From the NCBI GenBank assembly GCA_963851265.1, contig CAWKNZ010000003.1, forward strand, positions 32,001-96,000: DNA of 64,000 nt. Direction: 5' to 3'. Shown one piece after another: positions 8,791 to 37,153 of the stretch. The notes beneath the pieces are model-generated. The model saw only the letters and a list, made by a program, of their open reading frames with translations. It was not told where the DNA came from and searched no databases. Both the position numbers and the translations under genes were made by a program. Every line of letters begins with the position of its first letter. Position 1 is the first letter of the stretch. This stretch comes from an uncultured Gemmatimonadales bacterium. GTDB taxonomy: Bacteria > Gemmatimonadota > Gemmatimonadetes > Gemmatimonadales > Gemmatimonadaceae.

Positions 8791-10155
8791 CTAACGCGCC
8801 GGCCGGTCCGCCCGGGCGGGGAGCGTCAGGGTGAACGCCGCCCCGCCCTGCGGCGCGGCGCCCGCGGTGAGGTCGCCGCCCAGCGCGCGCGCGACCCGCC
8901 GCGCGGCGGCGAGTCCGACGCCCGCGCCCGCGATGTGTCGCGTGCCCGCGAGCCGCACGGACTCGGCGAACACGCGCTCGTACGCGTCGGGGGGCACGCC
9001 GGGGCCGCTATCGTGCACGGCGAGCCAGCATCCGCCGTCCGGGCCCGGGCCACCGGCGACCTCCACCCGTCCGCCGGCTGGCGTGTACTTGCACGCGTTG
9101 GACAGGAGGTTGCCGAGCACCTGGTGTACGCGGGCAGGGTCGGTGTCTACCCAGCACGGCACGCCGTCGGGGGAGCCGACGCTGCAGGTCAGCGAGAGCC
9201 CCGCGCGGGCCGCGAGGGCGGCGTGTTCGGCGACCGCGTCCCGCGCCAGCGTTTCGAGCGACACGCGGTCCGGGCGTACGGCCAGCCCCCCACCCTCGGC
9301 CATCGCGACCGCGAGCATGTCGTCGACCCCGCCGAGCGTGGCCGTGATGAGCCGATGGCTGCGCGCGAGCGAGTCGGCCTGGCGCGCGTTGACCGGTCCA
9401 AGCAGCCCGTCGGCGACGAGCTCGATGTGCCCGCGAGCGGCGGCGAGCGGATTCCGCAGGTCGTGCGTCACGCCGCGCAGAACGGCCGCGCGCTCGGTGT
9501 GCGCGGTCTCCAACTCGCGGCGCTGCGATTCGGCGAGCGCGGCGAGGCGCGCGGTGCGCAGGCCCGCGCGCGCGAGCATGAGGACGCCCAGGACGGCCAG
9601 GCCGACGAGCACGGCGTCCGTCATCACCTCCGTGTTCCGGGCCCGCGCGATGGCCCGCGTCTCGTGCTCGGTGTAGCCCGAGAGCGCGCCGTCGAGCCCT
9701 TCGGCTGCGTCGAGGGCGGCGAGGCCGCGCGTGTCGACGTGCCCCTCGTGCCAGGCCGCGACGGTCCTCCGGAGGGTGTCGGCGGAGGCGCGGATCCGCT
9801 CGTCGGTGAGCGGCGCGACGAGCGAGTCGACGGCGCGGATGTCGGCCGAGACCGTCGCGTGCGCGAGTCGCCCGCGTTCGCTCGCGTTGGGACCCATCAC
9901 CCGCGCGCCCGTGGCGGCTTCGTACAACTCGACGCCGATTCCCGCCTCGAGATCGTTCACCGCCACGCGGGCGGGGGCGACGTGTTCGGTGAGGCGCCGC
10001 CGCGCCTGGAACGGTCCCACCGACGTCACCAGCGGCACGAGGGCCAGCGCGGCGAGCAGGACGATGACGGTGGCGAACGGAATCCAGAGGGCGCCGGAGC
10101 CGACGGGCCCGGTCGACGCGGGTTCGTGCGTCACGTCGCGCGTCGAGCCGGGCAT
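8791..10155 (-). CDS. Membrane sensor histidine kinase (orphan)
   Basis: Two TM segments; HDLRNPL, NLLSNACKY, DSGPGV, GAGVGL. Confidence 0.9.
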   Translation of the reverse strand: MPGSTRDVTHEPASTGPVGSGALWIPFATVIVLLAALALVPLVTSVGPFQARRRLTEHVAPARVAVNDLEAGIGVELYEAATGARVMGPNASERGRLAHATVSADIRAVDSLVAPLTDERIRASADTLRRTVAAWHEGHVDTRGLAALDAAEGLDGALSGYTEHETRAIARARNTEVMTDAVLVGLAVLGVLMLARAGLRTARLAALAESQRRELETAHTERAAVLRGVTHDLRNPLAAARGHIELVADGLLGPVNARQADSLARSHRLITATLGGVDDMLAVAMAEGGGLAVRPDRVSLETLARDAVAEHAALAARAGLSLTCSVGSPDGVPCWVDTDPARVHQVLGNLLSNACKYTPAGGRVEVAGGPGPDGGCWLAVHDSGPGVPPDAYERVFAESVRLAGTRHIAGAGVGLAAARRVARALGGDLTAGAAPQGGAAFTLTLPARADRPAR

Positions 10156-11302: not shown

Positions 11303-12667
11303 CTATTCGTACCGCAGCGCCTGAATGGGGTCGAGCGACGCCGCGCGCCGCGCGGGCCACGTCCCGAAGATCACGCCGACCACGGCGGAGAACGCGAACG
11401 CCATGATCACCGACGCCGGCGCGACCTCGGTGCTCCAGCCGAGGAACGCGTGGAGCGCGATGGCCGTCCCCCAGCCGATGGCGACGCCGATCAGCCCGCC
11501 GAGCGAGCAGAGCACCACGGCCTCGGTGAGAAACTGGAGGAGGATGGTCGCGCGCGAGGCGCCCAACGCCTTGCGCACGCCCACCTCGCGCGTGCGCTCG
11601 GTGACGGAGACGAGCATGATGTTCATGATCCCGATGCCGCCGACGAGCAGCGACACCGTCGCGACGCCGGCGAGCAGGTAGGTGAACACCTGCGTGGTCT
11701 CGCCGAGCGTGTTGAGGAAGTCGGCCTGGTTGCGGATCTGGAAGTCGTCCGGGCGGCCGACCGGCGTGCGATGCGCGCGGCGCATGATCCGCTGCACCTC
11801 GGCCATCGTCTCGGGAATCTGCGCCTCGTTCGGGGCGAGCACCGAGATGGTGCGCAGGTTCTCGGTGCCGAACAGGCCGAAACGCGCCGTCGAGAGCGGG
11901 ACGATGATCTCGTCGTCCGGATCGTTGAAGCCGGTGGCGCCGCCCTTCTGGGCGAACACCCCGATGACGGTGAACGACTGCGCGCCGAGGCGGATGCTCT
12001 GGCCGACGAGCGCCTGGGGGTCGGTGACGCCGAGGTTGCCGGCGGTGGTCGCGCCGACGACGGCGACGCGCTTGCGGCCGGCGTCGTCGGACTGGGTGAA
12101 CATGCGGCCGGCCGCCACGGTGTAGCGGCGTACATCGGCGTAGTTGGGCGACGTGCCGATGACCTGCGTGCTCGCGTTCGCGGTGCCGAACTGCACCTGC
12201 TGCTGCTTCGTCATCTCGGGTTCGACCGCGGCGATGACCTGGGCGCGCTGCGTGAGGAAGTCGGCGTCCTGCACCTTGAGCGGGGCGCGGTCGGTCTGCG
12301 ACGCGACGCCGCCGGTGAACACCTGCCCCGGAATGACGGTGAGGAGCGTGGTGCCGAGTGAGGAGATGCGGTTCTTGACCGCGTCCTGTGCGCCGCGGCC
12401 GAGCGCGAGCATGGCGATCACCGCGCCGACGCCGATGATGATGCCGAGCATCGTGAGGAGCGAGCGCAGCTTGTTGACGCGCAGCGCCTCGAGCGAGACG
12501 CGGAGCACCTCGCCGAACTGCATCCCGCGATGCTTTGCGGGCGGCGGCGGCGCGCTCCGCCGCGGAGCGGGCGACGGCTCGGGCGGCGCCCCGGGCCGGA
12601 CCGCGGGGGTCGGCTCGAGCGCGGGGTCGACCGACGTGTCGCCGGGCGGACGGAGTGTGACGGCCAT
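11303..12667 (-). CDS. MacB/FtsX-type ABC permease (no nucleotide-binding domain)
   Basis: NKLRSLLTMLGIIIGV, VGGIGIMNIMLVSVTERTREVGVRKALGA, PARRAASLDPIQALRYE; GAGGAG RBS. Confidence 0.95.
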   Translation of the reverse strand: MAVTLRPPGDTSVDPALEPTPAVRPGAPPEPSPAPRRSAPPPPAKHRGMQFGEVLRVSLEALRVNKLRSLLTMLGIIIGVGAVIAMLALGRGAQDAVKNRISSLGTTLLTVIPGQVFTGGVASQTDRAPLKVQDADFLTQRAQVIAAVEPEMTKQQQVQFGTANASTQVIGTSPNYADVRRYTVAAGRMFTQSDDAGRKRVAVVGATTAGNLGVTDPQALVGQSIRLGAQSFTVIGVFAQKGGATGFNDPDDEIIVPLSTARFGLFGTENLRTISVLAPNEAQIPETMAEVQRIMRRAHRTPVGRPDDFQIRNQADFLNTLGETTQVFTYLLAGVATVSLLVGGIGIMNIMLVSVTERTREVGVRKALGASRATILLQFLTEAVVLCSLGGLIGVAIGWGTAIALHAFLGWSTEVAPASVIMAFAFSAVVGVIFGTWPARRAASLDPIQALRYE

Positions 12668-12751
12668 CTCTGAATCTCCTCGAAAGTCGGCGGGGCCGAA
12701 CGGGACCCGCCTTACGCCGTACGCATCACGAACGGACGATGAACGCGCGCC

Positions 12752-14365
12752 TCAGCCGGGCGGTCGTCCCCCGCCGCCACCACCGCCGCCGGTGGCGCCG
12801 CCTCCTGCGCCGCCGCCCTGGCGACCGCCCGAGCCCGACCCGCCGCCGCCGATGCCCGGCAGCGCGGTGCGGCTGCGGATCTGATTCTGGAACTGCGTTC
12901 GCTGCTGCTGCAACACTGCGGCCGAGACCAGCGCGACCTGCTCACCCTCGCTCAGACCGTTGGTGATCTCGACGACGTCGTAGTTGGACAGGCCCACGGT
13001 GACGACCCGCGGAATGAACGCGGGCTGCTGGGCGGTCCCACCCTTCACGAACACCACCGCGTGCGCGCCGGGGACCAGCGCGCCGCCCTGTCCGCTCCCC
13101 GCGCCACCGCGGCCACCGCCCTGGCCGCCGCCGTTGCCGCCGCCCGCACCACCTCCCCCACCACCGCCCGCAGCGCCGCCACCACCGCCACCCGCCCCGC
13201 GGCCGGTGCGCCGCCCGGCGCCTCCGGCCGCGGCTCCCCCGGCCGCGGCGGCGCCCGCCGGTCCCGCCGCGCCACCGCGGCCGCCTACGGTGACGCTCCC
13301 CGGCGTGTCGGCGCCGGCCGCTCCCGCCCCCGCCCCGCGGTTGCCGCGTTGTGCCTGCAGCATCTGGCGCACCGAATCCGCGTCGAGCCCGAGCGCGGTC
13401 GCGGCGCTGGCCGCGTCGCGCCCACTCCGGACCGCGTCGACCGGCACGGCGAGCACGTTGTCGCGCTCCGAGACGAGCACCGACACGTCGGTGTTCATCC
13501 CGGGCATGAGCGCCCGGTCCGGGTTGTCGATGCGGATGAGCACCGGGAAGAACGTGACGCTCTGCTGAACGGTCGCCTGCGGCTCGACCTTCTCGACGAC
13601 GCCCTTGAAGGTGCGGCCGGGGTACGCGTCGACGGTCACGCGCGCCTCCTGTCCCGACCGCACGCGGCCGATGTCGCTCTCGTTGACGAGCGTGCTGTCG
13701 TAGACCGCGCCGAGGTTCGCGACCGTCATCAGGATGGTGCCGCCAGACGGCGAGTTGATCGACGACGCGATGACCTGGCCGAGCGAGACGGGCCGCGTGA
13801 TGATCGTGCCGGCCGACGGCGCGCGGATCACGACGTTCTCGATGCCGATGCGCGCGTTCTCGAGTTGCGACTGCGCGGCGACGAGCGCGGATTGCGCGTT
13901 CGCGTACGCGAGCCGCGCCGCCTCGATGTCGGGCGCGGTGAGCACGCCCTGGCGCAGCAACGCCGTGTCGCGGACGAACTGCGTGCGGGTGATCTGCACC
14001 TGCGAGCGCGTCGCGACCACCGCGGCGTTCGCCTGGTTGAAGTTCGCCGTCGGGATGCGCGGGTCGATGCGCACGAGCACCTGCCCCGCGGTGATCTGCG
14101 ATCCGGTCTGCACCGGCAGCGCGGTGATCTGCCCCGACGTCTGCGAGCGTACGTCGACCGCGTTGATCGGCGTCACCGTGCCGGTCGCCTCGACGTCGAC
14201 GACGATGTTCTGCCGTGCGGCGGGAGCGCTCTGGATGGCCGTCGCCGCGTCGGCCTGCTTCTTGGCGCACGCCCCGGCCAGCGTGGCCGCGGCGGCGAGG
14301 GTGGCGGGCAGCGCGAGCGATCGGCGGCGGGGGCGCGACGGCATGGGCAGGGGCGGGAGGGTCAT
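12752..14365 (-). CDS. MacA-like periplasmic adaptor (MFP), lipoprotein, with Gly-rich insertions
   Basis: ATG overlaps TolC TGA; LAGAC lipobox; IRAPSAGTI, VNESDIGRV, VDAYP, LMPGMN, GLSEGEQV. Confidence 0.92.
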   Translation of the reverse strand: MTLPPLPMPSRPRRRSLALPATLAAAATLAGACAKKQADAATAIQSAPAARQNIVVDVEATGTVTPINAVDVRSQTSGQITALPVQTGSQITAGQVLVRIDPRIPTANFNQANAAVVATRSQVQITRTQFVRDTALLRQGVLTAPDIEAARLAYANAQSALVAAQSQLENARIGIENVVIRAPSAGTIITRPVSLGQVIASSINSPSGGTILMTVANLGAVYDSTLVNESDIGRVRSGQEARVTVDAYPGRTFKGVVEKVEPQATVQQSVTFFPVLIRIDNPDRALMPGMNTDVSVLVSERDNVLAVPVDAVRSGRDAASAATALGLDADSVRQMLQAQRGNRGAGAGAAGADTPGSVTVGGRGGAAGPAGAAAAGGAAAGGAGRRTGRGAGGGGGGAAGGGGGGGAGGGNGGGQGGGRGGAGSGQGGALVPGAHAVVFVKGGTAQQPAFIPRVVTVGLSNYDVVEITNGLSEGEQVALVSAAVLQQQRTQFQNQIRSRTALPGIGGGGSGSGGRQGGGAGGGATGGGGGGGGRPPG

Positions 14366-15687
14366 TGGTTGCCGCCGACGAGCGCTTCGAGCTGCGCCCG
14401 CGCGGACCGCGCGGAGAAGCGCGCCTGCACGAGTCCGAGCCGCGCCTGGGTGAGCGTCGTCTGTGCGGTGAGCACGTCGAGCGAGGTGGCGACGCCGAGC
14501 TGGTATCGCTGGCGCTGCACGCGCAGGTTCTCCTCGCCGGCGGCGATGGCCTGCGCCTGGGTCGCCTCCTGCTGCCCCGCGGTGCGGAGCTCGGTCAGCG
14601 CCTGCACCAGCGTCTGCTGCGCGGCCAGCTCCTGGTCGCGCACCGAGGCCTCGCTGTTGGCGTAGTTGACCTCGGCGTTGGCCACATTGGTGGCCGTGTT
14701 CAGCTGATCGAAGACGGGCAGCGTGATCGCGAGCCGCAGCTGCCCGCTTGGCACGTAGCTCCCCGAGAAGATGTCGAGCGTGCTCGCCGCGCCGGTGAGG
14801 TTGCGGCCGTAGCTGACCGACAGGTTGGGGAAGTACGCGGCGCGTGCGGAGCGCGACTGGTTGCGCGCCTGTTCCACCGACGCCCGCGCCTGCCGCACCG
14901 CGGGCCCCGTGGCGGCGAGGCGTGCGAGCCCGGCGCTGTCGATGGTGAACGCGGTGTCGGGCGGCAACCCGCCGACCGTCGCGCTCACCGGCGCGTCGGA
15001 GCCGATCACGCGGGTGAGGGTCGCGTCGGCGTTGGCCCGGTTGCTGGCGGCGGTGATCGCGGCGAGCTGCGCCTGCCCGACGGCGATCACCGCCTGCAGC
15101 GAGTCGCTGCGCGTGGCGGTCTGGGCGCGGAGCCGCACCGTGGCCAGGGTGAGCTGCGTCTGCGCCTGGGCGAGCTGGTCGCGCGCGGCCGCTTCGGTCT
15201 CGCGTGCGGCCAGCGCGGCGAAGTACTGCTGCTTGACCGAGAGGGCGAGGCTCGCCCCGGTCGACTGGGTGTTTGCGCCGGCGGCGGCCTCCTGCGCCCG
15301 CGCGGCGCGCACGTCGTACACGCGCCTGAAGCCGTCGAACAGGGTGAGCGACGCCGTGAACCCGGTCGTGGTCTGGTACGCGCCGCTCACGATCTCGCCC
15401 GTCTGCGTGTTGACGCGCTGCGTGACGTTGATCTGGCGCGTGAGCCCGCCCGTGACCTGCACGGCGGGGAGGAACTGCGCGTACGCGCCCCGGAGGGCGA
15501 CGCTGCCGGCGCGCACGAGGCCGCGCGCCTGGATGGCGCCGGGCGCGGCCCGCTGCGCCGTCTTGATGGCGTCGGCAAGCGAGATCGGGCGGCCGGTCGC
15601 GCTGTCGGAGGCGAGCGTTCCGGGCGCGGCGACGAGATCGCTCGCGACCGGCGGCAGCGTCGCGGGCAGTTGAGCAGCGAAGAGCAT
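14362..15687 (-). CDS. TolC family outer-membrane efflux protein
   Basis: ISLADAI, LTLFDG, YFPNLS, ITLPVFD, RYQLGVATSLDVL, QLEALVG. Confidence 0.92.
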   Translation of the reverse strand: MLFAAQLPATLPPVASDLVAAPGTLASDSATGRPISLADAIKTAQRAAPGAIQARGLVRAGSVALRGAYAQFLPAVQVTGGLTRQINVTQRVNTQTGEIVSGAYQTTTGFTASLTLFDGFRRVYDVRAARAQEAAAGANTQSTGASLALSVKQQYFAALAARETEAAARDQLAQAQTQLTLATVRLRAQTATRSDSLQAVIAVGQAQLAAITAASNRANADATLTRVIGSDAPVSATVGGLPPDTAFTIDSAGLARLAATGPAVRQARASVEQARNQSRSARAAYFPNLSVSYGRNLTGAASTLDIFSGSYVPSGQLRLAITLPVFDQLNTATNVANAEVNYANSEASVRDQELAAQQTLVQALTELRTAGQQEATQAQAIAAGEENLRVQRQRYQLGVATSLDVLTAQTTLTQARLGLVQARFSARSARAQLEALVGGNQ

Positions 15688-15806: not shown

Positions 15807-16394
15807 TTACGGCGTGCCCATACGCCCGCCCGACATGCCCCCGCCGCCGCGCGGTGCGCTCCGCGCCGCGCCGCTCAACTGCGCCTCGGCGAACGCGCTG
15901 CGGCGCATGTCGTCCTCCATCTTCGCGGCGCGCGCCCGCTGCTCCGGATTCAGCGCGGCCAGCGCGTCCTCGCGCGCCTGCGCCTCGGCGTCGCGCTGCG
16001 CACGGAGCGCGGCCGCCCGCGCGCGCAGCCGATCGCGCATGGCGACCCGATCGCTGTCGCTCATCGTCGTCCACACGTTCGGATCGCTCGGCGGCTTGAG
16101 CGAGGCGGCGCGCGCGCTGAGCGTGTCGACCGCCGCATCGCGGCGCACCTTGGCCGCGCTCACGCGCCCGACCTGCTCCGGGTTGAGCCCCAGGTCCGCA
16201 CGCCGCTCGAGCACCACGTCGACGAGATTGATGGTGTTCGGATCGCGCTTGGGACGTGCGTCCGCGCTATCCCGGTTGTCGCCGCCGCCGCGCGAACGGC
16301 CACCGCTGAACTGCGCGCGCGCGGGCAGGGCGGCGCCGGCGAGCGCGGCGAACGCGACCACGACCGGGGTCACGCGAGAGAAGCGGTGCGACAT
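15807..16394 (-). CDS. Secreted Spy/CpxP-like (LTxxQ) helical protein
   Basis: Signal peptide ARA-Q; two LNPEQ motifs (LGLNPEQ, ALNPEQR) around a long helix. Confidence 0.78.
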   Translation of the reverse strand: MSHRFSRVTPVVVAFAALAGAALPARAQFSGGRSRGGGDNRDSADARPKRDPNTINLVDVVLERRADLGLNPEQVGRVSAAKVRRDAAVDTLSARAASLKPPSDPNVWTTMSDSDRVAMRDRLRARAAALRAQRDAEAQAREDALAALNPEQRARAAKMEDDMRRSAFAEAQLSGAARSAPRGGGGMSGGRMGTP

Positions 16395-17599: not shown

Positions 17600-17627
17600 A
17601 CACACGCGTCCGAAACGGGCCCCCTAC
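17600..17627 (-). promoter_or_regulatory. Candidate ECF promoter GTAGGGG-N15-GTGTGT upstream of the lipoprotein
   Basis: Minus strand reads GTAGGGG GCCCGTTTCGGACGC GTGTGT; same boxes and spacing as 18294-18321. Confidence 0.68.
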
Positions 17628-18247: not shown

Positions 18248-18293
18248 CAGGGCGGACGGAAGAAGGCGACGACCGGCTACCGAGCGGGCCCGC

Positions 18294-18321
18294 GTAGGGG
18301 TAGCGTTCGCCTCCTGTGTGT
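18294..18321 (+). promoter_or_regulatory. Candidate ECF promoter GTAGGGG-N15-GTGTGT, 8 nt before the fecR-like ATG
   Basis: GTAGGGG TAGCGTTCGCCTCCT GTGTGT ACAAGGGC ATG. Confidence 0.68.
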
Positions 18322-18329
18322 ACAAGGGC

Positions 18330-19664: not shown

Positions 19665-19669
19665 GCCGC

Positions 19670-22375: not shown

Positions 22376-22864
22376 TTACGGCCGCGGTCCTCTCGCGGGA
22401 TCGGCGCCGGGCCCGCCCGGGCCGCCGCCCGGGCCGCCCGGGCCGCCCGGGCCGAACCGGCCGCGCATCCGCCGCTCGTGCTCGGCGTGCGCCGAGTCGA
22501 ACCGGACACGCTGCTCGGGCGTGAGCACCGCGCGGACGTCCGCGCGCGTCGAGTCGAGGATCGCCCGCAGCGACTGTCCGGGGCCGCGCCAGAACCCGTC
22601 GATCTGTCCGCGGCGCGCCACGAGCACACTGTCGATCCGCGTGCGCTGTGGCGCACTCAAGCCGTAGCTCGCGATCGGTCCGCCGTCGAGCAACATCTCG
22701 TCGCGTGGCCCGCGGCGTGGGCCGCGTGCGCCGAATCGCGTTCCGACTCCCCAACCCGTGCCTGCCCCCGCCAGGAAGACGAGCAGCATCGCGAGCGCGG
22801 CGAGCCACCGCGTGTTCGGCGCCGCCGGTGACGGCCCCGCGTCCCCACCGTCGGCTAGGGTCAC
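22376..22864 (-). CDS. Membrane-anchored periplasmic LTxxQ (Spy/CpxP/CnrX-like) protein
   Basis: GTG overlaps upstream TGA; TM LLVFLAGAGTG; GLSAPQ and VLTPEQR motifs; GGP tail. Confidence 0.75.
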   Translation of the reverse strand: MTLADGGDAGPSPAAPNTRWLAALAMLLVFLAGAGTGWGVGTRFGARGPRRGPRDEMLLDGGPIASYGLSAPQRTRIDSVLVARRGQIDGFWRGPGQSLRAILDSTRADVRAVLTPEQRVRFDSAHAEHERRMRGRFGPGGPGGPGGGPGGPGADPARGPRP

Positions 22865-23376
22865 GGAGCGCCCCCGAGCCCGATCGCGCGGCCGAGCGCG
22901 TCGACGCTCGGCGCACGCGCCTGGTCGGGCCACTGCGCGCTCGGATCGTGGAGACTGAGCGCCTGGACCGCCGACGCGTCGCTGAGTTCCTGCCCGGTCG
23001 CGGAGCCGGGGCCCGTTCCCAAGCGCGCGAGTCCCACGGCCAGCAGCCCGGCCGCCGCCGCCGCGAACAGGGCCGGGCGGAGCGCCCGCGCGAAGAGAGG
23101 GGTCAGCTCGTCGCGTCCGCGCGCGCGACCCGCGACGCGCCCGGCCGCGTGCGTCGTGCGGACGACGACGAGCGGCGGACGGCCGCCCCGAAGCGCGGCG
23201 CGGCGGGTGAGTTCGGCCGAAGCCGCGGCCTCGATCCGCCGCGCGAGCGCGTCGTACTCCGCCGCGCTGCGCGCGTACGCGCCGAGTTCGGGAGGCGGCG
23301 GCTCGGCCGCGAGTTGCGCGTCCGTCACCGGATCGAGGTCCGTAGGGGCCATGTCGTCGGCTCTGTGGTCCGTCAT
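22861..23376 (-). CDS. Putative anti-sigma factor (single TM)
   Basis: ATG overlaps the sigma stop; hydrophobic PALFAAAAAGLLAVGL. Function inferred from position. Confidence 0.6.
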   Translation of the reverse strand: MTDHRADDMAPTDLDPVTDAQLAAEPPPPELGAYARSAAEYDALARRIEAAASAELTRRAALRGGRPPLVVVRTTHAAGRVAGRARGRDELTPLFARALRPALFAAAAAGLLAVGLARLGTGPGSATGQELSDASAVQALSLHDPSAQWPDQARAPSVDALGRAIGLGGAP

Positions 23377-24011
23377 CGGTCAGCTCCGCGCCGCCACTCG
23401 GCGCTCAACCGCTCGCGGAGTGCGCGCCGCGCCCAGAACAGGTGCGCACGCACGGTCCCCTCGGCGATCCCTAGATGGTCTCCGATCTCGCGGTGGGTCC
23501 ACCCCTCCACGTCGTGCAGCAGTACCACGGACCGGCGCGTCTCGGTCAGCGACGCCAGCGCGGCGCGCAGATGGTCGCGCGCGTCGGCCCGTTCGGCCGC
23601 GTCGAGCACGCCCCCACCGGTCGACGCGGCCAGCGCGCCCGAGAGGCTCGCCGCGCGCTCGTCGTCGTCGAGCGATTCCGCGCGGCGCACGCGGGCACGG
23701 CGCCGCAGGTCGATGGCGCGGTTGCGCACGATGACGAGGAGCCAGGGGCGGAATTTCTCCGCCGGGCGGCACTCCTCGATGCGCGTCAGCGCGGTCACGA
23801 ACGCGTCCTGCGCGCAGTCGTCGGCGTCGGTGGGGTCGCCGAGTACCGACAGGGCGGCACCGCGTGCCGCGGCGAGGTGCCGCCGCACGAGGAGGCCGAA
23901 CGCGCCGCGGTCGCCCGCCACCGCCCCCTCGACGAGGACGGCGTCGGAGACGTCCGCGGGCGGCGCGCCCGCGGGAGGAACGTCCGCGGCAAACGCGTCA
24001 GCGGCAGCCAC
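23373..24011 (-). CDS. ECF sigma-70 factor (RpoE/SigW-like)
   Basis: GDRGAFGLLVRRH, ADDCAQDAF, FRPWLLVIVRNRAID, LHDVEGWTHREIG.LGIAEGTVRAHL. Start uncertain. Confidence 0.92.
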   Translation of the reverse strand: MAAADAFAADVPPAGAPPADVSDAVLVEGAVAGDRGAFGLLVRRHLAAARGAALSVLGDPTDADDCAQDAFVTALTRIEECRPAEKFRPWLLVIVRNRAIDLRRRARVRRAESLDDDERAASLSGALAASTGGGVLDAAERADARDHLRAALASLTETRRSVVLLHDVEGWTHREIGDHLGIAEGTVRAHLFWARRALRERLSAEWRRGADR

Positions 24012-24041: not shown

Positions 24042-24515
24042 TCAGCCGTGCCCGGGGCCGCCCATCCCGCCCTGGCCGCCCTCGCGCATCCGCTGCTGGC
24101 CCTGCTCGCGCATCTTGGCCAGGTTGGCGTCGAACGTCTTCTGCTGATCGGGCGTGAGGATGGCGCGCATGGCCGTGCGCTGCGACTCCATCTCGTGGCG
24201 GAACTGCATCATCGTCGCGCTGTCCGGAGGGCCGCCCTGCATCATCTGGCTGCGCATGGCCTGCATGCGCGTGCGGCCGGCGGCCTGCACCGAGTCGAGC
24301 TGCGCGCGCTGCGCGTCGCTCAACGTGATGCCCTGCATCAGCATGCCCATGCCGCGCATGCCCATGCCGCCGCGGCCCGGACCGCCGGCCGGCGGCTGGC
24401 CCGCTGGGGGCTGGTCGCCTGCCTGCGCGGCAAGCACGGCCGGCGCGGCGCAGCAGATCGAGGCGATCGCCGCGGCGAACGCGACGCGGTGGGGAAAACG
24501 GAGGATCGAGATCAT
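24042..24515 (-). CDS. Spy/CpxP family periplasmic chaperone-like protein
   Basis: Signal peptide; Met/Gln-rich; GITLSDAQ and ILTPDQQKTFDAN motifs. Confidence 0.88.
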   Translation of the reverse strand: MISILRFPHRVAFAAAIASICCAAPAVLAAQAGDQPPAGQPPAGGPGRGGMGMRGMGMLMQGITLSDAQRAQLDSVQAAGRTRMQAMRSQMMQGGPPDSATMMQFRHEMESQRTAMRAILTPDQQKTFDANLAKMREQGQQRMREGGQGGMGGPGHG

Positions 24516-24624: not shown

Positions 24625-24650
24625 GACGCGGAGCCGTCGGACAGCGTTTA
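24625..24650 (-). promoter_or_regulatory. Candidate ECF promoter TAAACG-N16-CGT upstream of the spy-sigma-antisigma operon
   Basis: Minus strand reads TAAACG CTGTCCGACGGCTCCG CGTC. Confidence 0.75.
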
Positions 24651-24715: not shown

Positions 24716-24741
24716 TAAACGCGGGCCGACGGTGGGGCGTG
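24716..24741 (+). promoter_or_regulatory. Candidate ECF promoter TAAACG-N16-CGT upstream of Oar-type receptor 1
   Basis: TAAACG CGGGCCGACGGTGGGG CGTG; divergent from the copy at 24625-24650. Confidence 0.7.
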
Positions 24742-24824: not shown

Positions 24825-24879
24825 TGCCCCGCTCTCGCATGCCCCGCTCTCGCATGCCCCGCTCTCGCATGCCCCGCTC
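24825..24879 (+). repeat. 15-bp tandem repeat TGCCCCGCTCTCGCA (about 3.7 copies) at the receptor start
   Basis: Units start at 24825, 24840, 24855, 24870; junctions form in-frame ATGs (MPRSR). Confidence 0.9.
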
Positions 24880-24880
24880 C

Positions 24881-27800
24881 ATGCGCCGTTCCGCGCGCCG
24901 CGTCCGCCCCTGGCTCGCGGCCGTCGCCGTGTTCGCCGCCCCCGCGCTCGCCGCGCCCGCGGCCGCAGCGGCGCAGGTCGGCACGACCACCGACGTGCTC
25001 ACCGGCACGATCCGCGACCCCGCGGGCAAGCCGCTCGCCGGCGCGACCGTCACGGTCACGTCGGTCGAGACGCAGGTCGCCCGCACGCGCCAGACCGACG
25101 CCAAGGGACGCTACGTGATCGTCTTCCCCGAAGGCGGCGGGCGCTACCAGCTCTCGGCGCGCAGCATCGGCCTCGCGCCGCGCACGGTGCTCGTCCAGCG
25201 ACAGGTGGACGAGGACCAGCTGATCGCCAACCTCACGTTGGGCACGCCCGGCGCGAGCGGCACGCCGACGCTCGACCGCGTCGTCGTCCGCGGCCAGCGC
25301 AACGCGGGACGCGGCAACGACCGCCCGTCCCCGGGCTCGACCGAGCGCCTGCTCACCCCCGACCAGGTGCTGCGCCTGCCGATCGAGGACGCGAGCGACC
25401 TCACCGCCCTCGCCGCACTCGCGCCGGGTGTGGTGAGCATCACGGGCACCGACTCGACGGCGAACAGCTTCTCGGTCGCGGGGCAGCGCACCGACCAGAA
25501 CAACGTCACGCTCGACGGCATCTCGTTCGGGTCCAGCTCGATCCCGCAGGACGCCGTACGCAACACGCGCGTGATCACGAGCACGTACGACGTCGCGCGC
25601 GGGCAGTTCTCGGGCGGGCAGATCGCGAGCACCACGCGCTCGGGGACGAACCTGCTTCAGGGCAGCTTCACCGAGCAGTACCGCAATCCGAGCCTCGCGT
25701 GGTCGCCGGCTGGCGCGGGCGCGTTCGGCCAGAGCTACCTGCAGAACAGCTTCTCGGGCGGGATTGGCGGACCGATCATCAAGGACCGCCTGTTCGTCTT
25801 CGGCGCGTTCCAGCTGCGTGAACGCTACGACCCGATTCAGTCGCTCACGACGGCGAACGCGACGACGCTCGAGCGCCTCGGCGTGAGTCCCGATTCGGCG
25901 GCGCGCTTCCTCGGCGGCCTGTCGCAGTACGGCGTGGCGCCGACGCTCGCCGGGATACCGTCGCGACGCACCACCAACAGCGACCAGCTCTTCGCGCGCG
26001 TCGACGCCGTGCTGACGCAGAGCGAAACGCTCACGCTGCGTCTCGACGCCCGCCGTACGAGCGCCGACGCGACGCGCATCTCCGCACTCGGCCTTCCCTC
26101 GGCGGGAGGCACGCAGAGCCAGAGCGGCGGCGGCGTGTTCGGCTCGCTCACGTCGCAGTTCACCGCCACCGACGGACTCTTCGCCGGCGCGTTGATCAAC
26201 GAGGTGCGCGCCTACCGTTCGTTGGGCAAGCAGGCCACCGACGCGTACCTCGACGCGCCCGCTGGGCGCGTGCAGCTGATCTCCGCGCTGCCGGGGGCTG
26301 CCGGCACCGCCGGGGGCGTCGGGGCGACGGTGCTACAGTTCGGCGGCAACGCCTCGCTGCCGCAGGCGAGCAACAACACGGCGTTCGAGGGCACCGAGGA
26401 GCTGTCGTTCATCCCCGCCGGCCGGCCGCACCGCGTCAAGCTCGGCGCCCTGCTCAACGTGAGCGACCTCGACCAGACCACGGCGACCAACAGCCTCGGC
26501 ACCTACACGTTCTCGTCGCTCGCCAACTTCCTCGCCGACCAGCCCTCGCAGTTCACCCGCACGCTCTCGCCCACGCAGCGCCTGGGCGGGTCGGTGAACG
26601 CGGCCGTCTACGCGGGTGACACGTGGCGCGCCGGCCAGGGCGTGCAGCTGACCTACGGGCTCCGCGTCGAGCACTCCAACTACACCCACCCGCCCGCGGC
26701 GAACGCCGCGCTCGACTCGGCGTTCGGCGTGCGGACGGGCGCGTTCCCCACCGAGACGCACCTGAGCCCGCGCATCGGCTTCACCTGGGCGCCAGTCCGC
26801 GCCTCCGCGCCGAACGCGAACGCCGACGCACCGGGCGCGCAAGGCGGCGCGCCCGATGCGGGCGGACGCGGGGGTGGCGGGGGCGGCGGCTTCGGTGGCC
26901 GCGGGGGTGGCGGATTCGGCGGGGGCTTCGGCGGCGGTCGGACCGGCGGTCCGACGACGGTGATCCGCGGCGGCATCGGCGAGTTCCGCGGGCTGGCGCC
27001 TGCCGGACTGTTCGCCGCCGCGCAGGGCGCGCCGGGGTTCCTCGCCACGCAGTCGCAACTCGTTTGCACCGGGGCGGCCGTGCCCGCGCCCGACTACGGC
27101 GACTGGACGAGCGACCCCGCGGCCATTCCGTCGTCGTGCGTCGACGTTCCGATCGACGGCATTCCGGTGGGCGCGCCGGGCACTGGCGCCCGCCCCAATG
27201 CGGTCGTCATCGGGCAGGGGTTCCAGGCGCCGCGCGCATGGCGCGCCTCGCTCGGCGGCCAGCGGCGGGTCGGCGAGCGCACCGCCGTCTCGCTCGACCT
27301 CAACTACGCGCTCGGCGTGGCGCAGTACGGGTTCCGCGACCTCAACCTGAACACGGCGCCGCAGTTCACGCTCGCCGCCGAGGGCGGTCGGCCCGTGTAC
27401 GTGCCCGCGTCCAGCATCGTGCCGGCGACCGGGGCGCTCTCGCTGTTCAACTCGCGCGTCGACCCCGCCTTCGGCCGCGTCCTCCAGACGACGAGCGGGC
27501 TGCGGTCCGACACCAAGCAGGCCACGCTCGGCGTCAACACGAGCACCGCGCGCGGCCTCCTCCTGAGCGCGAGCTACACGTTCACGCGCTCGACCGACGA
27601 GTCGTCGTTCCCGGGATCGTTAGGCGGCGCGGGGGTCGCGGGCACCACGCCCGGCAACCCCAACCTCGTGCAGCGCGCCACCAGCGACCTCGAGCGCCGG
27701 CACCAGCTCCTCGCGACGATCACCTACCCGATCACGTCGACGGTCGAGCTGACGTCGATCGCCCGCCTCAACTCGGGCGCGCCGTTCACGCCACTCGTCG

Positions 27801-28759
27801 GCAACGACATCAACGGCGACGGCGCGCGCGACGACCAGGCGTTCGTGTTCAACCCGGCGGCCGCGTCGGACACGGCGGTCGCGGGCGGGATGCGCCGCGT
27901 GCTGGCCGCGGCGCCGGCGAGCGTGCGCCGCTGCCTCACCTCGCAGCTCGGCCTCGTCGCGGCGCGCAACAGCTGCACGGGCCCGTGGACCCCCTCGCTC
28001 GATTTTCAGGCCAACATCCGCCCGACCGTGTTCGGGCTCGACCGCCGCCTGTCGCTCTCGGTGTCGACGACCAACTTCCTCTCCGGGCTCGACCAGCTGG
28101 TCCACGGCTCCAACAACGTGCAGGGTTGGGGCAACCCGGGACGCCCGGACGCGACGCTGCTCACGGTGCGAGGCTTCGACCCCGCGTCGCGACAGTTCCT
28201 CTACACGGTCAACGAGCGCTTCGGACAGACGGGCGCGGGGGCGAACGCGTTCCGCGTTCCGTTCTCGTTAGGCCTCCAGGCGCGCCTGGCGATCGGACCC
28301 GACCCGGCGCGCGACCGGCTGCGTCAGGTGTTCGGCGATCCCGGCGCCAGGGGTGCCGACGCGTCCGCGGCGTTCAACGACCGCTTCGCGCGGCTGGTCC
28401 CCAACCCGATCGACACGATCCTCGCGCTCCGCGATTCGCTCGCGCTCACGCCGCCGCAGCTCGGGAGCCTCACGACCCTCCGCGATTCGCTCCGCGCCCG
28501 CAACGCGCCACTCGCGGACTCGCTGCGTGCGCGCCTCGCCGCGGCACAGAGCGCGCCCGACCCGCGGCAGGCGTTCGCCACGATCGCGCCGCTGCTGCAG
28601 CGCGCGAGGGCGAACGCCGCCGCGACGTTGACGGCCGCACAGGGAGTGCTGACGCCCGAGCAGTGGGCGCGGGTGCCGGAGAGCGTGAAGCGGCCGCCCC
28701 GCGGCGGGGTGGGCGGAGGAAGAGGAGCGGGACGACCGGGCGGCGCCGGCGGGCCGTGA
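24881..28759 (+). CDS. Oar-type TonB-dependent-receptor-like protein 1 with C-terminal Spy/CpxP-like tail
   Basis: Signal peptide; carboxypeptidase-regulatory-like N-domain (PLAGATVTV, TDAKGRY); plug NNVTLDG, GQFSGGQI, RSGTN; barrel LTYGLRVE, SPRIGFTW; tail with LTPPQ and LTPEQ. Confidence 0.88.
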   Translation: MRRSARRVRPWLAAVAVFAAPALAAPAAAAAQVGTTTDVLTGTIRDPAGKPLAGATVTVTSVETQVARTRQTDAKGRYVIVFPEGGGRYQLSARSIGLAPRTVLVQRQVDEDQLIANLTLGTPGASGTPTLDRVVVRGQRNAGRGNDRPSPGSTERLLTPDQVLRLPIEDASDLTALAALAPGVVSITGTDSTANSFSVAGQRTDQNNVTLDGISFGSSSIPQDAVRNTRVITSTYDVARGQFSGGQIASTTRSGTNLLQGSFTEQYRNPSLAWSPAGAGAFGQSYLQNSFSGGIGGPIIKDRLFVFGAFQLRERYDPIQSLTTANATTLERLGVSPDSAARFLGGLSQYGVAPTLAGIPSRRTTNSDQLFARVDAVLTQSETLTLRLDARRTSADATRISALGLPSAGGTQSQSGGGVFGSLTSQFTATDGLFAGALINEVRAYRSLGKQATDAYLDAPAGRVQLISALPGAAGTAGGVGATVLQFGGNASLPQASNNTAFEGTEELSFIPAGRPHRVKLGALLNVSDLDQTTATNSLGTYTFSSLANFLADQPSQFTRTLSPTQRLGGSVNAAVYAGDTWRAGQGVQLTYGLRVEHSNYTHPPAANAALDSAFGVRTGAFPTETHLSPRIGFTWAPVRASAPNANADAPGAQGGAPDAGGRGGGGGGGFGGRGGGGFGGGFGGGRTGGPTTVIRGGIGEFRGLAPAGLFAAAQGAPGFLATQSQLVCTGAAVPAPDYGDWTSDPAAIPSSCVDVPIDGIPVGAPGTGARPNAVVIGQGFQAPRAWRASLGGQRRVGERTAVSLDLNYALGVAQYGFRDLNLNTAPQFTLAAEGGRPVYVPASSIVPATGALSLFNSRVDPAFGRVLQTTSGLRSDTKQATLGVNTSTARGLLLSASYTFTRSTDESSFPGSLGGAGVAGTTPGNPNLVQRATSDLERRHQLLATITYPITSTVELTSIARLNSGAPFTPLVGNDINGDGARDDQAFVFNPAAASDTAVAGGMRRVLAAAPASVRRCLTSQLGLVAARNSCTGPWTPSLDFQANIRPTVFGLDRRLSLSVSTTNFLSGLDQLVHGSNNVQGWGNPGRPDATLLTVRGFDPASRQFLYTVNERFGQTGAGANAFRVPFSLGLQARLAIGPDPARDRLRQVFGDPGARGADASAAFNDRFARLVPNPIDTILALRDSLALTPPQLGSLTTLRDSLRARNAPLADSLRARLAAAQSAPDPRQAFATIAPLLQRARANAAATLTAAQGVLTPEQWARVPESVKRPPRGGVGGGRGAGRPGGAGGP

Positions 28760-30265: not shown

Positions 30266-33200
30266 TTACGGTCGCCCGCCGCCGGGCGGTCCGCCGAACG
30301 CCTGGCGGAACGGGTTCTTGACGTCGTCGCCCACCTTGGCCCACTGCGCGGGCGTGAGGATCGCCTGCGACTGCTGCACGGCCTCCTCGAGGAGCTGGCG
30401 GCCGCGGGCGAGGTCGGGACGGATGGTCGAGAAGATGACCGCCGGGTCGGGGTTGCTGCCGAGTTTCTGGACCTTCGCGCGCAGGTCGGTTCGGAACCGC
30501 TGGTAGCGCGCCGCGAGCGAGTCACGCACGGGCTCGAGCTTGCGCACCTGCGCGGAGTCGAGGCCGAGCGAGTCGCGCAGGTCGATGAGCTTCGCGGCCG
30601 GGTTCAGGCTGGCGGCGAGCGCGGTGCTGGGTGCGGCTCCGCCCTGTCCGCCGCCGAGCAGGCCGGCGAGCGGACCGCCCCCGCCACCCCCGCCGCCCGG
30701 ACCGCCACCGCCCGGACCGCCGCCCCCGAAGCCGAACGCGCCGAAGGGGTTCGCGCCGTAGACGTATCGCGCCTGGATGCCGAGCTGGAACGTCTGCCGG
30801 AACACGGAGGCCTGGCCGGTCGTGTTCCCGAAGCGCTGGTTCACCGTGTACGAGTACGTCTGCGTCGTCGGGTTGAAGCCGTTGATCGCGAGCAGCGTCT
30901 GGTCGGGGCGCACCTGCTGCCCCCAGCCGCGCAGGTTGCTGGACCCGTGGAAGAGCTGGTCCAGCCCGGCGAGCGTGTTGAGCAGCGTGGCGGAGATCGT
31001 GAGGCGGCGTTGCAGGCCGAGGCGGTCGGGCTTGTAGTTGAACTGCACGTCGAGCCCCGGCACCCACGGCCCGCGGCAGCTGTTGCGCCCGGCCACCTGA
31101 CCGAGCTGCGACTCGAGACACGCCCGCGCCGAGCTCGGCGCGCTCGCGAGCACCTGCTGCATCGCGGCGGCGAGGGCGGGGTCGAGCCCCGGCGCCTTCG
31201 GGTCGAAGACGAACGCCGCATCGTTGCGCGCGCCGTCCCCGTTGACGTCGCCGTTGACGGTCGGCGTGTAGGGCGCGCCGCTCGTCAGGCGGCCGATGCC
31301 GGTGACCTCGAACGACGGGTTGAGCGGGAACGTCGCGGTCCCGATCAGGTTGTGCCGGATGTCCTGGTCGGCGCTCGCGAACGGCAGCAGGTTGGGGTTG
31401 CCGCGCGTGGGCGTCTGCTGGTAGCCGAACGCCGGCGGGCCGAACGCGTACGAGCTCTGGTCGCGGTTGCGCGCGACCGTCCACGACAGGTTGAAGATCG
31501 CCCCGCGCGAGCTGATGCCGTTGAGCGACGCGGTGACCTGCGCGTTGCGCGAGCGCAGCCCCGAGCTCACGTCGAGCACCTGGCCGAACGCCGCGTCGCG
31601 ACGGCTGGCGGCGAGCGACGTCGCGCCGGTGAGCGGCGAGATCGCGGTCGGCGAGACGAACACCGGCCGGTTGCCCTCCTGCGCGAGCGTGAAGCCCGAC
31701 CCCGCGGCGGTGTTGAGGTTCGCGTCGGTCACGCCGTACTGCGCGACGCCCCACGCGTAGCTCGCGTCGAGGCCCGCGGTCCAGCGCTCCCAGAAGCGGC
31801 GCGTGACGCCTAACGACGCGCGCACCGAGCGGGGGGAGCGGAAGTCGGGCGCGAACGCGGTCACCGAGGGCACCGCGCTCGAGGCGACCGCGCCCGGGAA
31901 GAGGGTCCCGGGGCGCTGCGTGCAGGTGGTCGGGATGGCCGACACGCCGCTCGCGAGGATCGCCGAGTAGTCCGGGCCGACGGGGTCGAGGCAGGTGATC
32001 TGCGTCTGATCGCCGGGGAGGCCGGAGCCCTGCTGCGCGGCGGAGAAGAGTTGCGTCGGCGCGCGCCCGCGGAACTCGCCGACGCCGCCGCGCACGAACA
32101 GCGTCGGGCCGCCGCGGAAGAGCGACGGCGCCCCGGTCGCCGCCTGGCGCGCCTGCGCGGCCGCCTGCTTGGCGCTGTCGGGGAAGAACGTGTACGTGAA
32201 GCCCACGCGCGGGCTCGCCCGCAGCTCGCTCGGGAAGCGGTCGGTGCGCAGCCCGAACGCGGAGTCGACCGGGTGGTTGTAGGCCGGCGCGCCCGAGTAC
32301 GTCGTCCCTTCCACGCGCACGCCGTACGTGAGCTGGAAGTTGCGGCTCTGGCGCCAGGTGTCGCCGAGGTACGCGTTCAGGTTGAGCGCGCCGCCGCGCA
32401 CGTCGGGCGCCTGGAGCGTGCGCTGAAAGAGGGCCGGCGTGTTGCCGAGGAAGTCGGCGAGCGTGTTGTACGTGTACGTGCCGTACGGGCTCGTCGCCGT
32501 CTGCTGGGCGAAGCGGCTCGCGTTGAGCAGGCCGCCGAGCTTGATGCGGTGCTGGCCGTTGCCGGTGAGCAGCGACAGCTCGTCCGTGGCCTCGACGTAG
32601 TTGGTCTGCCCCTCGTTGGGCAGGCCGGCGTTGGAGCCGAAGCCGAACGACGAGATGCCGGTCGTGCCGTCGGCGAGCGTGCTGGTCACCCGCACGCGGC
32701 CGCCCGGGATCTCGACGTAGGGCTGGGCGTTGTTGCTCGCGCGGTTGACGTACACGCGCCCTTCGTTGAGCAGCGCGCCGCCGAGGACCTCGTTCGGGAA
32801 GCGCGACGAGAGGGAGGCGAAGAGGCCGCCGCCGCGGTTGGTGCTCTGCCCGCCGTTGGTCGGCACGGCGAACGGCGAGATGCGCGTCGCGTCCTGCGTC
32901 TGCGAGCGGAGGTCGCCGCGCAGCGTGAGCGTCTGCGACTCGGAGAGGTTGAAGTCGAACCGCGCGATGCCGGTGACCTGGTCGTTGACGCGCGTGCCGG
33001 GGATGCCCGCCTGGCTGACCGGGATGCCGCGCGTGTTCAGCGCGGAGAGGAACCGCGCCGCCGAGTCGCTGCTCGCGCCGAGCCCGGCGAGGGCGCGCGG
33101 GTCGGCGCCTAACAGCGAGGTGAGCGGGTCGGTGCGGCGGCTCCCCTGGAGCGCGAGGAAGTAGAACGCCTTGTTGGGCGCGAACGCGCCGCCCACGCCC

Positions 33201-34054
33201 GCCGAGAGCTGGTTGGACGTGTAGCCGGTGCCGTACGCGCCCGTGTAGTCGGGAGTGACCTGCAGCTGCGGCGCGCGCAGCGTGTAGGTGCCGCCCACGT
33301 ACAGGTTGTTGGTGCCCGAGCGCGTCGTGCTCGCCACCTGCCCGCCCGAGAACTGGCCGCGCGCGACGTCGAACGTGTTGGTGATGACGCGCGTCGCGCG
33401 CACCGCCTCCTGCGGGAAGCTCGCGCCGCCGAAGGTGATGCCGTCGAGGGTGACGTTGTTCTGCGACGCGCGCTGCCCGGCCACGTTGAAGCCGGCCTGC
33501 GTGGTGTCGTTCCCGCCCTGGGAGATCACGCCCGGGGTGATGGCGGCGAGCGCGTTGGGGTCGGTGGCGTCGACCGGCAGGCGGAGCGCCTGCTCGGTGG
33601 TGACGGTGCGCTCCGAGTTGCCCGGCTCCTGGCCGCGGCCGTTGTTGGTGGGCGCGCGGGCCGTGACGCGAACCGGGGCGAGCTGCGTGGTGCTCTGGGC
33701 GAGCGAGACGTTGGCGACGAGGCGGTCCTCGTCGCCCTCACGCTGCACGTTGAGCGTGCGCGGCTGCTGGCCGATCGCGCGCACCACGATCCGGTAACGG
33801 CCGCCGCCGTCGGGAAAGAGCACGGTGTACGTGCCCTTCTCGTTGGTCGACCGCGTGCGGCTCACGCCCGTCTCGAGTGACGTGACCGTGACCTGCGCGT
33901 TCGCCACCGGCTGACCCTGCGTGCCGACGACCTTGCCGGTGACGATGTCGGTCGTGCTGCCGACCTGCGCGGCGGCGACGGCGGGCAGGGCGGCGGCGGC
34001 CGCGACGGCGAGGGCCGCGACGATAGAGCCGCCGGGGCGAGGATGTCGGGACAT
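30266..34054 (-). CDS. Oar-type TonB-dependent-receptor-like protein 2 with C-terminal Spy/CpxP-like tail
   Basis: Paralog of 24881 (QVGSTTD, FPDGGGRY, NNVTLDG, FDVARGQFSGG, SPRVGFT); tail LRDSLGLDSAQ and ILTPAQW. Confidence 0.88.
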   Translation of the reverse strand: MSRHPRPGGSIVAALAVAAAAALPAVAAAQVGSTTDIVTGKVVGTQGQPVANAQVTVTSLETGVSRTRSTNEKGTYTVLFPDGGGRYRIVVRAIGQQPRTLNVQREGDEDRLVANVSLAQSTTQLAPVRVTARAPTNNGRGQEPGNSERTVTTEQALRLPVDATDPNALAAITPGVISQGGNDTTQAGFNVAGQRASQNNVTLDGITFGGASFPQEAVRATRVITNTFDVARGQFSGGQVASTTRSGTNNLYVGGTYTLRAPQLQVTPDYTGAYGTGYTSNQLSAGVGGAFAPNKAFYFLALQGSRRTDPLTSLLGADPRALAGLGASSDSAARFLSALNTRGIPVSQAGIPGTRVNDQVTGIARFDFNLSESQTLTLRGDLRSQTQDATRISPFAVPTNGGQSTNRGGGLFASLSSRFPNEVLGGALLNEGRVYVNRASNNAQPYVEIPGGRVRVTSTLADGTTGISSFGFGSNAGLPNEGQTNYVEATDELSLLTGNGQHRIKLGGLLNASRFAQQTATSPYGTYTYNTLADFLGNTPALFQRTLQAPDVRGGALNLNAYLGDTWRQSRNFQLTYGVRVEGTTYSGAPAYNHPVDSAFGLRTDRFPSELRASPRVGFTYTFFPDSAKQAAAQARQAATGAPSLFRGGPTLFVRGGVGEFRGRAPTQLFSAAQQGSGLPGDQTQITCLDPVGPDYSAILASGVSAIPTTCTQRPGTLFPGAVASSAVPSVTAFAPDFRSPRSVRASLGVTRRFWERWTAGLDASYAWGVAQYGVTDANLNTAAGSGFTLAQEGNRPVFVSPTAISPLTGATSLAASRRDAAFGQVLDVSSGLRSRNAQVTASLNGISSRGAIFNLSWTVARNRDQSSYAFGPPAFGYQQTPTRGNPNLLPFASADQDIRHNLIGTATFPLNPSFEVTGIGRLTSGAPYTPTVNGDVNGDGARNDAAFVFDPKAPGLDPALAAAMQQVLASAPSSARACLESQLGQVAGRNSCRGPWVPGLDVQFNYKPDRLGLQRRLTISATLLNTLAGLDQLFHGSSNLRGWGQQVRPDQTLLAINGFNPTTQTYSYTVNQRFGNTTGQASVFRQTFQLGIQARYVYGANPFGAFGFGGGGPGGGGPGGGGGGGGPLAGLLGGGQGGAAPSTALAASLNPAAKLIDLRDSLGLDSAQVRKLEPVRDSLAARYQRFRTDLRAKVQKLGSNPDPAVIFSTIRPDLARGRQLLEEAVQQSQAILTPAQWAKVGDDVKNPFRQAFGGPPGGGRP

Positions 34055-37143: not shown

Positions 37144-37153
37144 GCGCGCGCTG

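Follow-up and report, generated by a model that had tools for sequence, protein, structure and literature searches.

TonB-dependent transporters typically end on the last strand of their barrel with an aromatic residue; those known are importers, and their accessory domains are N-terminal. The Oar protein of Myxococcus xanthus has a CarboxypepD_reg N-terminal domain and is required for PopC secretion (PMC6434023, PMC11658791), and the first of these states that PopC was not shown to pass through the Oar barrel (PMC6434023). The protein-import systems FusA/FusC and YddB/PqqL use a periplasmic capture partner (PMC6793856), the periplasmic protein Spy acts as a dimeric cradle (PMC8144458), and groups of extracytoplasmic function (ECF) sigma factors with an anti-sigma gene at position +1 and an LTXXQ gene at +2 are likely envelope-stress systems (PMC7826278 supplement). 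Here we describe two paralogous genes for Oar-type transporters (transporters 1 and 2) in a window of 64,000 nucleotides from an uncultured Gemmatimonadales bacterium (contig CAWKNZ010000003.1, positions 32,001 to 96,000, forward strand), both of which continue beyond the barrel into a domain of the Spy/CpxP/CnrX fold. We tentatively read the encoded proteins as stress-induced TonB-dependent polypeptide transporters of the Oar subclass with a built-in periplasmic holdase, a set of predicted functions to which we would give a little less than an even chance.

An earlier note on this DNA had claimed that both barrels run on into a Spy-like tail, and this is borne out. In transporter 1 the frame stays open for 154 residues after FSLGLQARLAI, and in transporter 2 for 163 residues after FQLGIQARYVY (30790-30758, minus strand). 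The AlphaFold2 model of transporter 1 (residues 140-1270, 105 aligned sequences; mean predicted local distance difference test (pLDDT) score 86.9, predicted template modelling score (pTM) 0.85) contains a plug and 22 barrel strands, counted by eye, with FSLGLQARLAI as the last strand and helices beyond model residue 993 (block pLDDT 76-97). Using VIA-align (Z 30-37 versus solved transporters over model residues 1-993), residue 993 superposes on the residue with which BtuB (594), Cir (663), FhuA (714), FecA (741) and FusA (867) end: the 22nd strand ends as in these transporters, and the LTXXQ domain follows. The C-termini of these five proteins face the periplasm, and since the strand end coincides with them the modelled tail should lie in the periplasm as well. 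The final aromatic residue is missing: the BtuB-terminal position is occupied by I in 60, L in 25, V in 15 and F in 3 of 105 sequences (I/L/V in 100/105) and is followed by Gly in 105/105 and, in transporter 1, by the 154 further residues. Three Oar-like barrels of the source genome that have no tail end in ..RYTFQ, ..GYRF and ..RYAF, a fourth has a short extension with no tail match, and the STN-bearing receptor at 19670 ends in ARF, as had been stated before. That the tail is part of the barrel, or disordered, was considered and is ruled out by the confident helical fold after strand 22.

The tail itself is, by model and sequence match, a folded helical-hairpin domain of the LTXXQ (Spy/CpxP/CnrX) family. 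On its own it exceeds the Pfam cut-off for LTXXQ (PF07813; 28.2 and 30 bits versus 24.3), a family that matches 29/43 aligned tails at E<=0.01, and in transporter 1 its motifs are NPIDTIL at 28403, LTPPQ at 28445 and LTPEQW at 28649. The 103-residue core modelled alone reaches a pLDDT of 94.2, and in a fold search of 48,161 chains the entries for CnrX (Z 8.6, twice), STV (8.1), ZraP (7.8), CpxP (7.7) and Spy (7.5, twice) made up 7 of the best 9 rows, the best being CnrX with a root-mean-square deviation (rmsd) of 2.9 over 95 aligned residues; these middling Z values make the fold assignment convincing only because they agree with the LTXXQ sequence match. A search of the PDB with the tail profile returned mostly generic helical proteins, with an STV protein at E 0.011. 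Across 375 tails the LTXXQ motifs are well conserved (L20 92%, Q24 96%, L88 97%, T89 88%, Q92 97%), as are the core positions in general (86-97%), and Arg recurs at core positions 67 (56%) and 74 (77%). A metal site of the CnrX type is absent from the same tails (His column at most 8%, Cys 0.4%, Met 20%), and the tail is tethered to an outer-membrane barrel where CnrX has an inner-membrane anchor. Thus, of the proposal that a chaperone, dimerisation or sensing domain hangs beneath the barrel, the folded domain on the periplasmic side stands, whilst CnrX-like metal sensing is unlikely given the lack of His and Cys columns. The likeness to the free protein at 15807, also suggested earlier, is real but modest (hhalign 73.8%, E 2.9e-5), and the tail is no closer to it than to another free protein, the Spy-like one at 24042 (72.7%). 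Of the ten strongest long-range couplings in single tails, nine link hairpin tip to base in an antiparallel-dimer-like manner, a class of contacts picked post hoc; the predicted complex of two tails (model residues 995-1128) scored 0.00 against a mark of 0.42, which is no evidence either way.

The tail is fixed in the clade: it is carried by 120/120 top homologues and by 67/67 complete C-termini among 80 further loci, by which read-through and mis-assembly are ruled out. Of the best 80 of 499 loci, 77 belong to named Gemmatimonadota and 3 to unnamed bacteria, so that all named relatives in this set fall within the phylum, and the Atlas clusters are likewise most frequent there; cultured Gemmatirosa and Gemmatimonas strains encode a tailed transporter, and the closest named relatives of transporter 1 are a protein of Gemmatimonadetes T265 (87%) and one on a Gemmatirosa sp. 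contig (88%). A C-terminal query found a match in 142/301 genomes of the phylum (66/70 in the bacterium's own family), and the tail profile in 151/301 with at most 10 per genome, where the weakest matches could be to free LTXXQ proteins (in both counts the unpublished G156 enters as one genome). Identities of barrel and tail track each other (Spearman 0.85 for 258 of 260 sampled proteins), and the nearest tail neighbour lies within the barrel top 10 in 224/258 cases, with 10 expected, which on sequence grounds suggests a single ancient fusion that has been passed on together with the barrel; of the two parts, the tail is evolving somewhat faster (median identity 0.30 versus 0.39). No attachment to other domains was seen among 113 new matches, 110 of them with a barrel and 3 short fragments. 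One protein of 856 residues (P0121), with an N-terminal Exo_endo_phos domain ahead of a barrel end and tail, stands on a single short contig and is possibly a chimera. A divergent multi-copy subfamily of tailed barrels does not have the conserved tail Trp (L060, L066, L069, L070 and others).

Two tails can also stand in tandem. Among the best 150 profile matches in the 50% library, 64 have a barrel upstream (one of these matches is weak), 62 have 45 or fewer residues upstream and 24 are of other kinds; 8 of the 64 barrel proteins carry two tails, and a search from one of these (P0140) added 118 new proteins, 107 of them two-tailed, with names mostly from Longimicrobiales. Given that Spy and CnrX dimerise (PMC8144458, PMC6851896), and that the tandem subfamily favours it, the working unit may be two tail domains, which could be formed within one chain. 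Eight secreted stand-alone proteins contain two LTXXQ repeats (P0182, P0209, P0218, P0226, P0244, P0254, P0266, P0267) and are possible single-chain Spy dimers.

In front of the tail, transporter 1 is composed of a signal peptide, CarboxypepD_reg, the TonB-box-like motif LDRVVVRG (25271-25294), plug and 22-strand barrel. Pfam assigns PF13620 (60.4 bits) and PF25183 (159.6 bits), with STN (PF07660) absent and a plug match of 19.8 bits that is below the cut-off of 23.9; transporter 2 likewise shows PF13620, a weak Plug match and PF25183. An N-terminal PF13620 extension together with the absence of STN places both in the Oar subclass. The TonB-box-like motif, a predicted site of TonB binding, occurs in 92/104 homologues by a pattern devised in this analysis, and the source genome has 13 TonB_C matches. 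In case of the barrel, FusA and YddB were the two best Foldseek rows with the model, and FusA gave the longest VIA alignment (681). Searched against the PDB, the full-length sequence matched nothing real, and neither transporter had an NCBIfam match above cut-off. The large barrel loops contain two Cys pairs (model residues 584/608 and 873/887) and a DxNxDG motif (831-840) that are invariant in the homologue alignment, the latter presumably of a calcium-binding-like type. Directly 5' of the start codon of transporter 1 a 15-base unit is present three to four times (about 24826-24883).

The tie of the transporter gene to a stress regulon comes from a shared ECF-type promoter. When 27 upstream regions were searched without bias, the top motif was AAC-N17-CGT, present in 22/43 tailed-gene regions versus 69/523 background regions, and across tailed genes the promoter takes the form AAC-N16/18-CGT. 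A matrix built from 27 tailed-transporter sites, none of them in the window, was used at a threshold score of >=11: under leave-one-out it scored 23/40 training regions (shuffles 2.5, antisense 8), and it scored 46/64 independent tailed genes (68 regions minus overlap with training; shuffles 5.6, antisense 2), 43 of these 46 sites sitting 95-190 bases before the mature N-terminus. Sites were further present in 16/25 free LTXXQ (Spy-like) genes (1.6 expected), in 8/14 homologues of the sigma factor encoded at 23373-24011 (1.2 expected), but in only 1/28 SusC-like transporters (2.3 expected), ratios that are not probabilities because kin are not independent. The comparison sets started at 30 loci, from which we removed loci of the source genome and of G156, loci at contig edges, two tailed genes (LTXXQ set) and the DUF1800 locus L334; the sigma set is 16 loci minus own genome and G156. 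Within the window TAAACG-N16-CGT occurs in five copies versus 0.14 expected, each before a gene start: these precede transporter 1, the divergent Spy-like/sigma operon, the TolC operon, a histidine kinase gene and a small barrel gene, and only the last three are independent because the pattern was derived from the first two. Three tail-less Oar-like genes have no site within 200 bases. We infer that the 23373-24011 sigma factor reads the AAC/CGT motif. As the promoter is common to tailed transporters, free Spy-like genes and sigma homologues and rare in SusC-like genes, the transporter probably belongs to a regulon of envelope stress comprising this sigma factor, its anti-sigma factor and a CnrX-like protein, together with TolC-MacB efflux.

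The top promoter matches in the source genome (L071-L090) include genes for M14, two M13 and an S9 peptidase, an amidohydrolase, DUF1800, Band 7, a PF14905 barrel and two sigma factors. A peptide-foraging regulon, drawn from these matches, was rejected when M13, DegP and DUF1800 failed across genomes; within the genome, 2/27 matches of seven peptidase/hydrolase queries score >=12.

The sigma module is itself conserved in its gene order (Table 1). At the loci of its sigma homologues, with gene types read by eye and five of the +2 proteins checked further, a small gene is next in 14/14 and a membrane-anchored LTXXQ-type gene is second in 13/14, whilst the +3 gene is TolC-like in 5/14 and a tailed-type transporter in 3/14; each genome has one or two genes closely homologous to that of the sigma factor. 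Seen from the tailed transporters, most neighbouring genes are unrelated, and an ECF sigma gene with small downstream genes is nearby in 5/41 loci. The 84 immediate neighbours of these 41 loci include no SusD, M16 or ton gene and no recurring dedicated nutrient partner, and a conserved substrate-specific operon was dismissed: generic kinases aside, no neighbour cluster appears in more than 6/41 loci. At one locus (L052:1-15000) a tailed transporter has a sigma module on either side, and genes for TolC, a membrane-fusion protein and MacB come after the second of these. In the window, the stress sigma operon is separated from the TolC operon by genes for a FecI-like sigma factor, FecR and an STN-bearing receptor (17624-22261), which apparently interrupt a series of genes that is unbroken in relatives. 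No ABC ATPase gene adjoins the TolC/membrane-fusion/MacB-permease genes in the gene calls. An open reading frame for a 337-residue lipoprotein-like product with no Pfam match (16481-17494) is upstream of the 15807 gene, a soluble-looking GAF histidine kinase gene, which is not conserved as a neighbour, separates the tailed paralogs (28791-30212), and two adjoining frames of 467 and 554 residues (35740-38818) encode what we take to be a radical-SAM and DNA-processing pair.

Table 1. Coordinates of the tailed transporter genes, their parts and associated features in the window.
Feature	Position	Strand	Remarks
Tailed Oar-type TonB-dependent transporter 1	24881..28759	+	1292-residue open reading frame
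Predicted ECF promoter of transporter 1	24716..24740	+	TAAACG-N16-CGT
Gly-rich disordered insertion between strands 12/13	26789..26965	+	pLDDT <50; periplasmic turn by strand count
Last barrel strand, FSLGLQARLAI	28262..28294	+	Final Ile, then invariant Gly
Linker	28295..28387	+	Short amphipathic helix, variable Gly-rich spacer, second helix
LTXXQ domain of Spy/CpxP/CnrX fold	28388..28696	+	103 residues; closing motif Q-W-x-x-(L/V)-P conserved
Tailed transporter 2 (paralog)	30266..34054	-	1262 residues; architecture as transporter 1, 48% identity to it
Tail core of transporter 2	30311-30619	-	
Predicted ECF promoter of divergent Spy-like/sigma/anti-sigma/sensor operon	24626..24650	-	Third-best site of 3777 called genes
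Free secreted Spy-like protein	24042..24515	-	PF07813 37 bits; NCBIfam Spy match weak, below cut-off
ECF sigma factor	23373..24011	-	Candidate promoter reader
Small single-pass membrane protein, putative anti-sigma factor	22861..23376	-	No Pfam match
Membrane-anchored LTXXQ protein	22376..22933	-	CnrX-like position; homologues match PF07813 or PF13801 weakly
Second free secreted LTXXQ-like protein	15807..16394	-	
TolC-like, membrane-fusion and MacB-type permease genes	11303..15687	-	Same motif at 15750-15774
Histidine kinase	8791..10155	-	Same motif at 10208-10232
Small outer-membrane beta-barrel gene	8133..8750	+	Same motif at 7911-7935

The reading of a polypeptide conduit draws on the apparent co-induction with Spy-like and efflux genes, the lack of a nutrient partner, the Oar subclass and the position of a chaperone-family domain at the pore mouth. 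The transporter would be made once the sigma/anti-sigma/CnrX-like module is triggered; two tail domains, held by a flexible leash, would form a Spy-like cradle under the barrel, the second being supplied by the same chain in the tandem subfamily and otherwise by another transporter molecule or one of the free Spy-like proteins; and the cradle would keep an unfolded polypeptide at the pore mouth whilst TonB pulls the plug. Export of a periplasmic polypeptide, as for Oar/PopC, is slightly preferred over capture of an imported one, as for FusA/FusC, in our analysis, given that the genes under the same control have protective and efflux roles. Several points speak against a built-in holdase on a polypeptide conduit. 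CpxP, which has the same fold, is a regulator, and the cradle of Spy is strongly basic where the tail is mildly so (median net charge +2 over 375 tails, +6 in transporter 1). CnrX, again of the same fold, is likewise a regulator (PMC6851896). The tail Z of 7.5-8.6 falls in a range that the tool calls common for helical bundles, and the Foldseek search with the tail, a check the earlier note had put forward, gave no match at E<=0.001. FusA ranks 8th by VIA Z, after siderophore and B12 receptors. The covariation cross-check for a dimer in the tandem proteins was null (p 0.6-0.85, no enrichment, low depth). The promoter is not clearly shared by DegP (2/26, shuffles 1.9), M13 (4/26, shuffles 1.9) or DUF1800 (4/26, shuffles 2.1), transporter 2 has no proximal site (within 200 bases), and no exbB, exbD or tonB is found among the 84 immediate neighbours, unlike at oar.

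Much of the same evidence could be read as C-terminal cell-surface signalling, in which an outer-membrane-anchored CpxP/CnrX-like tail pairs with an inner-membrane CnrX-like protein or the anti-sigma factor, so that a ligand or barrel stress alters ECF activity in a feedback loop that replaces the N-terminal STN domain of FecA-type transducers; we consider this unlikely. CnrX is indeed the best fold match of the tail, but the metal ligands of the CnrX type are absent from it. The transporter has no STN domain, its Gly-rich leash could span the periplasm and its gene shares the promoter motif with a sigma module whose small +1 gene and membrane-anchored LTXXQ gene at +2 are conserved, with the transporter at +3 in 3/14; the module is, however, near only 5/41 loci, and up to 10 tail matches face one or two close sigma homologues per genome. 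In the tandem-tail proteins, moreover, the interface could be satisfied within the protein itself.

Less probable still is a structural role only, whereby the tail would dimerise barrels, as the earlier note had suggested, or chaperone its own large barrel during assembly by the beta-barrel assembly machinery (BAM), offsetting a degenerate terminal signal whilst the cargo is that of ordinary import. The replacement of the terminal aromatic by I/L/V in 100/105 would fit such a compensation, yet the source genome contains Oar-like barrels of similar size without a tail. The dimeric nature of the Spy/CnrX family and the 9/10 tip-to-base couplings (the post hoc class) would fit pairing, which would not need two tails per chain and for which the covariation check in tandem proteins was null; the promoter in common with free Spy-like genes is left unexplained. 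That the protein simply imports a nutrient such as peptides, with the tail as an old, near-neutral appendage and the promoter that of a general envelope sigma factor, is very unlikely: peptidases or amidohydrolases make up about 8/84 immediate neighbours (no background control) and peptidases 4/20 annotated top promoter matches in the source genome, and the tail diverges faster than the barrel (0.30 vs 0.39 median identity), but the tail is never lost (120/120, 67/67), its duplication is kept in more than 100 proteins, its core positions are 86-97% conserved and SusC-like importers do not have the promoter (1/28).

Returning to the favoured reading of a transporter with a built-in holdase, the tailed family differs from known TonB-dependent transporters by a fixed C-terminal periplasmic domain, and its promoter is common with chaperone-like and efflux genes and not with nutrient-uptake genes; tailed transporters may thus move or hold unfolded proteins and not ordinary nutrients. 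A periplasmic protein-clearance or secretion channel that is powered by TonB and has its own Spy-like cradle, or else trans-envelope signalling via a post-barrel domain to CnrX or the anti-sigma factor, is a pair of outcomes that we regard as rather unlikely; if either is true, TonB-dependent transporters would be seen to work on a principle new for them. With a possible client-binding module naturally fused to an Oar-type barrel, protein handling becomes testable by one deletion. The shared promoter may outline what is the chief regulon for envelope stress in this phylum, which is common but little studied; the lineage with the tailed transporters lives in soil and water. The earlier expectation that this architecture had not been characterised held: no published description of a tailed transporter was found in literature searches, which mostly did not cover subscription papers and included the ECF supplement in part, and the domain string is recorded automatically in databases (JGI names) without interpretation.

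Among known systems, OmpA-type proteins also have a periplasmic domain following the last strand of an outer-membrane barrel, but theirs is an eight-strand barrel with a peptidoglycan-binding domain and not a transporter with a Spy fold. FecA-type transducers differ by their STN domain, and the FecI/FecR pair in the window goes with the separate STN receptor at 19670. In its gene order the module resembles CnrYXH-CnrCBA of Cupriavidus metallidurans (PMC6851896) and ECF03/ECF111 (PMC7826278): a sigma factor, a small anti-sigma factor and an LTXXQ/metal-resistance operon, then efflux genes. Promoters are apparently autoregulated there as here (ECF03 TTAAACC; ECF111 TTGAACCT/GTCTAAA; PMC7826278 supplement); no TonB-dependent transporter is described for these systems, and the tail has neither the His/Glu/Met ligands nor the inner-membrane anchor. 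With Spy, CpxP and ZraP the tail shares two LTXXQ motifs, a helical hairpin (rmsd 2.2-2.5 over 71-89 residues) and apparent stress regulation, whereas those proteins are free periplasmic oligomers and the tail is barrel-fused and less basic, ending in W-x-x-(L/V)-P where they have a long last helix. FusA/FusC and YddB/PqqL (PMC6793856) are alike in the large barrel, which gave the top Foldseek rows, and in a periplasmic partner for polypeptide cargo; they differ in sequence (~11% identity), in iron regulation and in that their partner is a separate M16 protease, of which no linked copy is found among the 84 immediate neighbours. The closest likeness in architecture is to Oar of Myxococcus xanthus with its CarboxypepD_reg, TonB box, plug, 22-strand barrel and lack of STN (PMC6434023, PMC11658791): Oar adjoins tonB/exbB/exbD and is not described as having a post-barrel domain, whereas the tailed gene has a Spy-fold domain after the barrel and mostly stands alone behind an ECF-type promoter.

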